This document shows positions 17,165-17,248 of a stretch of DNA of 64,000 bases, piece by piece (position 1 is the stretch's first letter; the number at the start of each line of letters is the position of its first letter). Under the pieces are notes generated by a model, which was given only the letters and a program-made list of their open reading frames with translations, did not search any database and was not told where the DNA came from. Made by a program: the position numbers and the translations under genes. Source of the DNA: Escherichia coli (GTDB lineage: Bacteria; Pseudomonadota; Gammaproteobacteria; Enterobacterales; Enterobacteriaceae); the NCBI RefSeq assembly GCF_003334315.1, contig NZ_QOWR01000015.1; one strand, 5' to 3'.

Positions 17165-17180
17165 TGGCACTCCACGAGCA
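17165..17180 (+). promoter_or_regulatory. Candidate sigma54 (-24/-12) promoter upstream of uacT
   Basis: TGGCACtccacgaGCA: perfect -24 element and GC at the canonical -12 register, about 70 bp upstream of the uacT ATG. Confidence 0.3.
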
Positions 17181-17248
17181 TGTGTTTAGACAGTTTCATT
17201 AACGTAAACGGTTGCTTTTTACTCTGGCGGGCGAAAGGAGAAACACTG

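Follow-up and report, generated by a model that had tools for sequence, protein, structure and literature searches.

Which regulators govern the transcription of uacT (ygfU), the Escherichia coli gene for a urate/proton symporter of 482 amino acids, which is transcribed divergently from its neighbour ygfT? This question is raised by a stretch of 64,000 nucleotides of E. coli DNA (RefSeq assembly GCF_003334315.1, contig NZ_QOWR01000015.1), referred to below as the window, in which ygfT (14894-16813, minus strand) and uacT (17249-18697, plus strand), both placed from open reading frames and RefSeq annotation, are separated by an intergenic region of 435 bp (16814-17248). The genes uacT and ygeW-ygfT belong to an anaerobic urate-degradation cluster, used by gut bacteria to lower host uric acid. 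An earlier note on this DNA had proposed that the uacT leader contains a sigma-54 promoter with a strong -24 element and, further downstream, an operator of the purine repressor PurR. We find that uacT is very likely preceded by a functional but non-canonical sigma-54 promoter, predicted above all from its conservation between genera, and that the PurR-type box would, with somewhat less assurance, be a functional operator.

The putative sigma-54-type promoter of uacT, CTGGCACTCCACGAGCA, lies at 17164-17180 on the plus strand and is composed of a CTGGCAC -24 box, a 5-base spacer and a GAGCA -12 box. The earlier note had correctly placed TGGCAC at 17165-17170 and GC at 17178-17179, and the GG (17166-17167) and GC pairs are exactly 10 bases apart, which is the canonical sigma-54 spacing. 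The -24 half matches the consensus TGGCACG-N4-TTGCW perfectly. The -12 half reads GAGCA instead of TTGCA, a poor box that the earlier note had overlooked. The transcription start is predicted near 17191 (17190-17192, plus strand), either by taking the C of the GC pair as -12 or by counting 19 bp downstream of the motif centre according to the rule of Bonocora et al. (2015).

Taken alone, the pattern TGGCAC-N7-GC carries little weight, with 11 copies in the window versus 3.55 expected from dinucleotide shuffles. Nearly all of these copies (e.g. at 5782, 8446, 9127, 13839, 14728, 25597 and 58860) lie in coding sequence and have poor matrix scores, and their surplus is probably an effect of codon usage (e.g. 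CTG-GCA-C) rather than a sign of binding sites. Counts of matches to an idealised consensus were misleading for both regulators, being too weak for PurR and too strong for sigma-54, and position matrices were therefore used instead.

The sigma-54 matrix was built from the 135 motifs that Bonocora et al. (2015) obtained by chromatin immunoprecipitation followed by sequencing (ChIP-seq). Its top two matches in the window are known sites, those of ygfK (1853, 14.7 bits) and yggP (62802, 14.5 bits). The scores of the uacT element weigh against its being a promoter of this kind: CTGGCACTCCACGAGCA reaches 5.1-5.4 bits, under all 135 ChIP-seq sites (minimum 6.5-6.6), ranks 207 among the 127,968 window positions, and, judged by the extended consensus, stands below the range of known sites. 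The loss lies wholly in the -12 half, with an A at -14 that is found in 1 of the 135 sites and a G at -15 that is found in 5. Within the intergenic region, the uacT element and the ygfT site described below are the top two matches of this matrix.

The evidence that carries the prediction is comparative. We gathered uacT orthologues and their flanks from species genomes and assemblies; the divergent ygfT-uacT arrangement is kept in many of the loci collected. Ten lineage representatives (E. coli, Citrobacter sp. R56, Pseudocitrobacter, two more of Citrobacter type, Serratia oryzae, Kluyvera, Raoultella, Pluralibacter and one further enterobacterium) were aligned without gaps, using TGGCA as the anchor. 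Between -1 and +33 of the T of this anchor, only C-T-G-G-C-A and, 13 bases further along, G-C-A-T never vary; the spacer does. The GG and GC pairs, at canonical spacing, are unchanged in all ten lineages, as they are in every E. coli sequence examined. Moreover, all lineages with a separate upstream region for uacT carry CTGGCAY-N7-GCA 70-148 bp before the start codon; they are E. coli, E. albertii, Citrobacter sp. R56, Pseudocitrobacter corydidari, C. freundii, a Citrobacter-like metagenomic genome, Serratia oryzae, Kluyvera, Raoultella planticola, Pluralibacter gergoviae and one further enterobacterium. By our own calculation, an upstream region of 500 bp would be expected to contain TGGCAY-N7-GCW about 0.008 times. 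Such a rare motif recurring in independent, diverged lineages is therefore not explained by chance, and invariant ends around a free spacer are, as a sequence pattern, the footprint expected of a sigma-54 promoter. The deviation is itself conserved: among the lineages compared, the -15/-14 pair is GA, GC or AA, never TT. In Morganella, a canonical sigma-54 motif (13.5 bits) is found upstream of uacT.

Public binding data, in contrast to this comparative support, do not confirm sigma-54 at the exact site. Positions 17156-17225 of the window are 100% identical in K-12 MG1655, and published K-12 binding data therefore apply to the sequence studied here. MG1655 coordinates (U00096.2) are obtained by adding 3,012,140 to the window coordinate, a conversion that holds because the two PurR motifs printed by Cho et al. 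(2011) map exactly into the window. Several observations count against a uacT promoter at this point. The sole peak that Bonocora et al. (2015) give in the ygfT-uacT intergenic region, OS32, has a fold-above-threshold score (peak strength) of 3, and its motif, centred at 3,029,008 (window 16868), lies 36 bp upstream of ygfT. The peak centre is 3 bp away from the motif of ygfT and about 300 bp away from that of uacT, and neither the high- nor the low-stringency table contains a peak near 3,029,312. In addition, the text of the RpoN paper based on genomic SELEX (systematic evolution of ligands by exponential enrichment) mentions neither ygfT nor uacT. The missing ChIP-seq signal is our main reservation about the uacT sigma-54 promoter.

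The divergent ygfT sigma-54 promoter to which OS32 corresponds, TATGCCCGTTTATTGCA (16860-16876, minus strand), combines a weak -24 box with a canonical -12 box. Although ChIP-positive, it scores almost as low as the uacT element, at 6.5 bits. It mirrors the uacT defect, with a canonical TTGCA in its -12 box but an ATGCCC -24 box that retains one G of the GG pair. Its -12 sequence TTGCAT is kept in other genera, where the -24 half is weak too.

Low scores and a missing peak leave some room for a different explanation, namely that CTGGCA...GCAT is bound by another protein or serves a CRP-dependent sigma-70 promoter as a -35-like element, and that uacT follows the YgeV iModulon indirectly. Besides the very low matrix score, the lack of T at -14 and -15 and the lack of a ChIP-seq peak even at the lower threshold, this explanation can invoke the match of CTGGCA to TTGACA at four of six positions and the presence of a CRP-like site upstream. 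It has to account, however, for invariant positions that coincide with GG, GC and their immediate neighbours at sigma-54 spacing around a free spacer. It has also to contend with the ChIP-verified ygfT site and its nearly equal score, with the identity of YgeV, the co-varying regulator, as a sigma-54 activator, and with an upstream module shared with ChIP-verified sigma-54 promoters of the cluster (see below). Furthermore, a consensus scan of both strands of the intergenic region yielded no sigma-70 promoter, and when CTGGCA was read as a -35 box, no conserved -10-like hexamer was found 16-18 bp downstream across the other genera, which makes a sigma-70 promoter improbable as the main promoter of uacT. 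We regard this explanation as quite improbable and retain the sigma-54 promoter.

The RpoN region of Cho et al. (2014) from chromatin immunoprecipitation on microarrays (ChIP-chip), as tabulated by Bonocora et al., extends over 3,028,352-3,029,976 (1,625 bp) and covers both the ygfT and the uacT motifs. As tabulated there, it is unusually wide for a weak site and its centre falls midway between the two motifs; this width and centring are a hint of uacT occupancy that is suggestive only. The main text of Cho et al. (2014) contains nothing on ygfT or ygfU, and the supplement of Bonocora et al. (2015) does not list uacT as a gene whose expression changes when sigma-54 is overexpressed. The uacT promoter is one of those covered by the Reg-Seq preprint, whose supplement contains no text on uacT. 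A full-text literature search for uacT or ygfU together with PurR or sigma-54 returned nothing specific, in a corpus where the content of tables may in part escape such a search, as happened with the row on ygfT-ygfS in Cho et al. (2011).

What could activate this promoter? Upstream of it lies a palindrome, TATCAATATGAGA (17042-17054), which is a candidate activator site, possibly for YgeV, and is shared with the xdhA, ygeW and ygfK promoters. It is located 123 bp from the uacT promoter and 179 bp from the ygfT promoter, and could serve both. The pattern T[AC]TCA-N3-TGA[GT]A occurs three times in the window (17042-17054, 1672-1684 and 282-294) versus 0.13 expected, and four times in the 18-kb K-12 xdhA-ygfK locus versus 0.06 expected (copies at 6597-6609 and at about 779-791 of that locus). 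The same 13-mer TATCAATATGAGA is found upstream of ygeW, TATCAATATGAGT on the other strand upstream of xdhA, and TATCATAATGATA upstream of ygfK. The palindrome precedes the intergenic sigma-54 promoters of uacT, ygfT, xdhA, ygeW and ygfK by 111-214 bp. The copy at 282-294 falls within yqeC, downstream of the sigma-54 motif internal to that gene. Upstream of uacT, the palindrome is also kept in other genera. Two other identities were rejected by eye: the half-sites do not fit FNR, and the ygfK copy is just loosely Fur-like. We therefore speak of TATCAATATGAGA as a candidate YgeV operator, a designation drawn from its sequence and distribution.

Between the palindrome and the promoter, at 17115-17130, a CRP-like site of the form TGTGA-N6-nCnCr, TGTGATTGCCTCCGCA, is centred at about -68.5 and presumably binds CRP. 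In every lineage with the uacT promoter, a constant distance of 49-50 bp separates this site from the T of TGGCA downstream, and the palindrome stands 71-82 bp upstream of it across lineages. Comparable sites precede the ygeW, ygfK and yqeC-internal sigma-54 motifs by 59, 79 and 60 bp, distances that are roughly in helical phase with the 50 bp at uacT, and at xdhA a TCACA half-site was read by hand at the equivalent 49 bp. These other sites, of TGTGA-N6-TCACA type, are located at 6752-6767 and 16548-16563 of the K-12 xdhA-ygfK locus and at about 522-600 of the window (minus strand); the copy at ygfK is a perfect TGTGAGTTCATTCACA. The module of palindrome and CRP-like site thus precedes the ChIP-seq-verified sigma-54 promoters of ygeW and ygfK, and the palindrome also precedes that of xdhA, so that the uacT element stands in the same architecture as the ChIP-verified sigma-54 promoters of the cluster.

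The four verified promoters, those of xdhA, ygeW, ygfK and ygfT (OS29-OS32 of Bonocora et al. 2015), are indeed the closest known relatives of the uacT element. They resemble it in their GG/GC spacing, their gene cluster, their upstream palindrome, their phased CRP-like TGTGA and their link to the YgeV iModulon. Unlike them, uacT has GAGCA in the -12 box where they have TTGC, CTGC or ATGC, a score under that of every ChIP-seq site, and no called peak.

Both uacT and ygfT are members of the published YgeV iModulon. YgeV is a sigma-54 activator, and ygfT is expressed less in a ygeV mutant. A gene that diverges from ygfT, as uacT does, needs a YgeV-responsive promoter of its own, and the conserved element described here is, on sequence grounds, the only candidate for it. 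No published YgeV binding site was found in the literature examined. In one further enterobacterial genome (locus 4144-5925), uacT directly adjoins a ygeV-like gene for a sigma-54 activator and a ygeW-like carbamoyltransferase gene, which links the transporter physically to the regulator.

We then consider the second element of the uacT leader. The candidate PurR-type operator, ACGTAAACGGTTGCTT, occupies 17202-17217, 47 bp upstream of the ATG, which corresponds to about +12 to +27 of the predicted start (predicted centre +19.5). At these coordinates, 13 of 16 positions match the PurR consensus ACGCAAACGTTTGCGT, as had been claimed; the 16-mer quoted in support of that claim, AACGTAAACGGTTGCT, is offset leftwards by one base from the coordinates given with it, and in that register only 5 of 16 positions match. 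The box is a 16-bp imperfect palindrome with a central CpG, and every one of its bases is found in bona fide operators, including the G at position 10 (purE) and the terminal CTT (purM, xanP, codB).

Of 100 shuffled sequences, 40 contain a match to an idealised PurR palindrome with at most three mismatches. A matrix was derived from 26 ChIP-associated motifs of Cho et al. (2011), excluding the two that lie in the window. By this matrix, the box scores 19.2 bits and is the best match of the window (p = 1.9e-7), with 0.024 such sites expected per 64 kb and about 1.7 per genome. It outscores 15 of the 28 ChIP-associated motifs in a leave-one-out comparison, and with a symmetrised matrix (18.2 bits) it stands above 11 of 26. 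These figures also bear on the most sceptical explanation, according to which both motifs match by chance and nothing at this place is dedicated to the regulation of uacT. The abundance of TGGCAC-N7-GC in the window and of near-palindromes in shuffles would suit it. It is opposed by the cross-genus invariance of the sigma-54 core, by the matrix probability of the PurR box, and by reduced polymorphism within E. coli, where 72% of 5,281 genomes agree exactly over a 70-nt segment that spans both motifs, versus 10% for a control segment. We consider it very improbable indeed.

A stronger competitor accepts the sigma-54 promoter and concerns the PurR box alone, which would be a chance or decaying match, PurR occupancy in this neighbourhood arising from another motif and concerning ygfT, not uacT. 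It draws first on the binding data. Cho et al. (2011) report an adenine-dependent PurR ChIP-chip region with its maximal signal (log2 ratio 2.08) at 3,028,215-3,029,251, i.e. at 16075-17111 of the window, and credit it to ygfT-ygfS with the motif GGGCAAGCGATTGCGC (16521-16536), which lies about 290 bp inside the ygfT coding sequence. The box that we favour is located 91 bp past the edge of this region, which is roughly symmetric about the motif at 16521 and not about the box. Its symmetry tells against an operator at uacT, and the ChIP-chip data therefore do not specifically support the box, although the closeness of an adenine-dependent region of maximal signal counts in its favour. However, the published motif scores 14.2 bits, 5 bits less than the box, and has about 41 chance equivalents per genome. 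Moreover, the known gcvT operator (window 36638) lies about 88 bp outside the gcvT region of the same authors; given that an established operator is missed by a similar margin, the ChIP-chip region is compatible with the box. In the text of Cho et al. (2011), uacT is not named among the differentially expressed genes. The claim that a PurR site precedes the urate transporter thus holds as regards a high-scoring operator sequence; its exact position is not confirmed by public binding data, which credit the region to another motif.

Conservation of the box also points in two directions. Pseudocitrobacter has the same sigma-54 element as E. coli but lacks the box, which is also missing from C. 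freundii, Serratia oryzae, Kluyvera, Raoultella and Pluralibacter. Within E. coli, the substitution G17204A, at the strongly conserved position 3 of the box, is found in 1,044 of about 5,280 complete genomes (about 20%) and lowers the score to 12.6 bits. These two observations weigh against a functional operator, as does the number of sites with such a score that chance alone would provide in a genome. Conversely, 19 bases around the box are identical in E. coli and Citrobacter sp. R56 despite a flanking leader that differs at about one position in three. An independent PurR box is present in the same intergenic region of another lineage, and PurR boxes are found at two further promoters of the cluster. 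One of these two, at the ygfK promoter, is ChIP-confirmed (Cho et al. 2011). The recurrence of PurR boxes at sigma-54 promoters of the cluster argues that the PurR input is real but evolutionarily labile. Taken together, we judge the explanation by a non-operator box to be rather unlikely, though the least unlikely of those opposed to a PurR operator at uacT, and continue to regard ACGTAAACGGTTGCTT as probably a working operator.

Several variants of the box deserve a separate description. In E. albertii, a C-to-G change at box position 2 is compatible with the consensus and equally common in true sites. A common E. coli haplotype, present in urinary isolates among others, combines T17200G with G17204A, whereby the box becomes ACATAAACGGTTGCTT. 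The independent box mentioned above belongs to the Citrobacter-like metagenomic genome, where the stretch between the palindrome and the CRP-like site holds ACGCAAGCGTTTGCAT (19.5 bits), about 238 bp before the ATG of uacT; C. freundii M-21 carries a degenerate copy at the homologous position. Judged from sequence, this relocation looks like binding-site turnover. The second box at another promoter of the cluster, ACGAAAACGTTTGGCT (16.7 bits), lies in the ygeV-ygeW intergenic region (6704-6719 of the K-12 xdhA-ygfK locus), likewise between the palindrome and the CRP-like site. It is about 107 bp upstream of the ygeW -24 box and is missing from the ChIP-chip regions that Cho et al. (2011) tabulated for PurR.

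How would these elements work together? Judging it somewhat more likely than not, we propose that the 435-bp ygfT-uacT intergenic region is a composite control region for uacT. The motifs, their scores, their conservation and their geometry were observed here. The co-variation of uacT and ygfT in the YgeV iModulon, sigma-54 on the ygfT side and the adenine-dependent binding of PurR in the neighbourhood were shown by others. From these, we infer the action of sigma-54, YgeV, CRP and PurR at the exact sites, and the position of the start. Under this proposal, uacT would be transcribed from the sigma-54 promoter, from the predicted start near 17191, with a -12 box of the form [G/A][A/C]GCA instead of TTGCA. 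Activation would come from TATCAATATGAGA, centred at about -143 and probably shared with the divergent ygfT promoter; the likely activator is YgeV, which is encoded in this purine-catabolism cluster, and the CRP-like site would stand upstream at its fixed distance of 49-50 bp from the -24 box. In Escherichia, a PurR dimer (LacI family) loaded with hypoxanthine or guanine would occupy +12 to +27 and block open-complex formation or early elongation, which would switch off urate uptake when purine bases are plentiful.

Such an arrangement has partial precedents. The PurR operators of xanP, ghxP (yjcD) and adeP (yieG) reported by Cho et al. (2011) share with the uacT box a 16-bp imperfect palindrome, a central CG and a TTGC right half. 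The uacT box scores within the range of the bound sites among these nucleobase-transporter operators, and the same logic would be expected, i.e. purine uptake repressed when hypoxanthine or guanine is abundant. The uacT box differs from them in lying downstream of a sigma-54 promoter rather than over sigma-70 -35/-10 elements. It is, moreover, not a reported bound motif, is restricted to Escherichia and one Citrobacter, and is polymorphic in E. coli. As regards its position, lacO1 (centre +11) and the intragenic PurR roadblocks of purB and purR are likewise sites of a LacI-family repressor downstream of the start. The uacT box differs from these in that its position is relative to a predicted start and its promoter is, by prediction, sigma-54-dependent.

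Sigma-54 promoters and PurR sites are ordinary kinds of element that are apparently unannotated at uacT. It is already known that PurR binds in the neighbourhood, that sigma-54 binds on the side of ygfT and that uacT is co-regulated with the YgeV iModulon. What appears to be new is a sigma-54 promoter for uacT, its conserved non-canonical -12 box, a candidate YgeV palindrome, and a PurR motif that fits better than the published one. The PurR link would be a modest extension of a known regulon. The -12 box, which deviates alike in ten lineages and escapes ChIP-seq, offers a test case for the weight given to positions -14 and -15. The whole architecture (activator palindrome, CRP-like site, atypical sigma-54 promoter and PurR operator) provides targets for mutagenesis and for the engineering of urate-consuming probiotics.

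A broader and doubtful possibility, which we put forward tentatively, is that the uacT promoter represents a conserved subclass of sigma-54 promoters. Its members would have a -12 box of the form [A/G][A/C]GCA(T) with no T at -14, would bind the holoenzyme too weakly for detection by ChIP-seq or genomic SELEX, and would need both a phased CRP site and YgeV at TATCAATATGAGA. If this were true, sigma-54 regulons defined by ChIP and by consensus would be under-counted, and the palindrome would provide a first operator for YgeV as regulator of the gut urate-degradation cluster, control by PurR being superimposed in Escherichia.

Finally, some features of the locus complete this description. The Shine-Dalgarno sequence of uacT, AGGAG, was read at 17236-17240 (plus strand), 8 nt before the ATG at 17249. 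A regulatory element in the leader RNA was considered and rejected: a search of 16700-17400 against Rfam gave one sub-threshold match (L31 leader, E = 0.55), and the predicted 5' untranslated region folds no better than shuffled sequences (z = +0.78). By the RefSeq annotation of K-12 BW25113, the gene order is xanQ-guaD-ghxQ-ygfS-ygfT, followed by the divergent uacT-yqfG-idi-lysS. The 421 bases between ygfT and uacT are found with 98-100% identity in 5,316 of 5,426 complete E. coli genomes. In the urinary isolate E. coli M160133, an IS1A transposase gene is present at the expected start of ygfT, about 350 bp upstream of uacT, so that in this strain an insertion sequence interrupts the intergenic region on its ygfT side.

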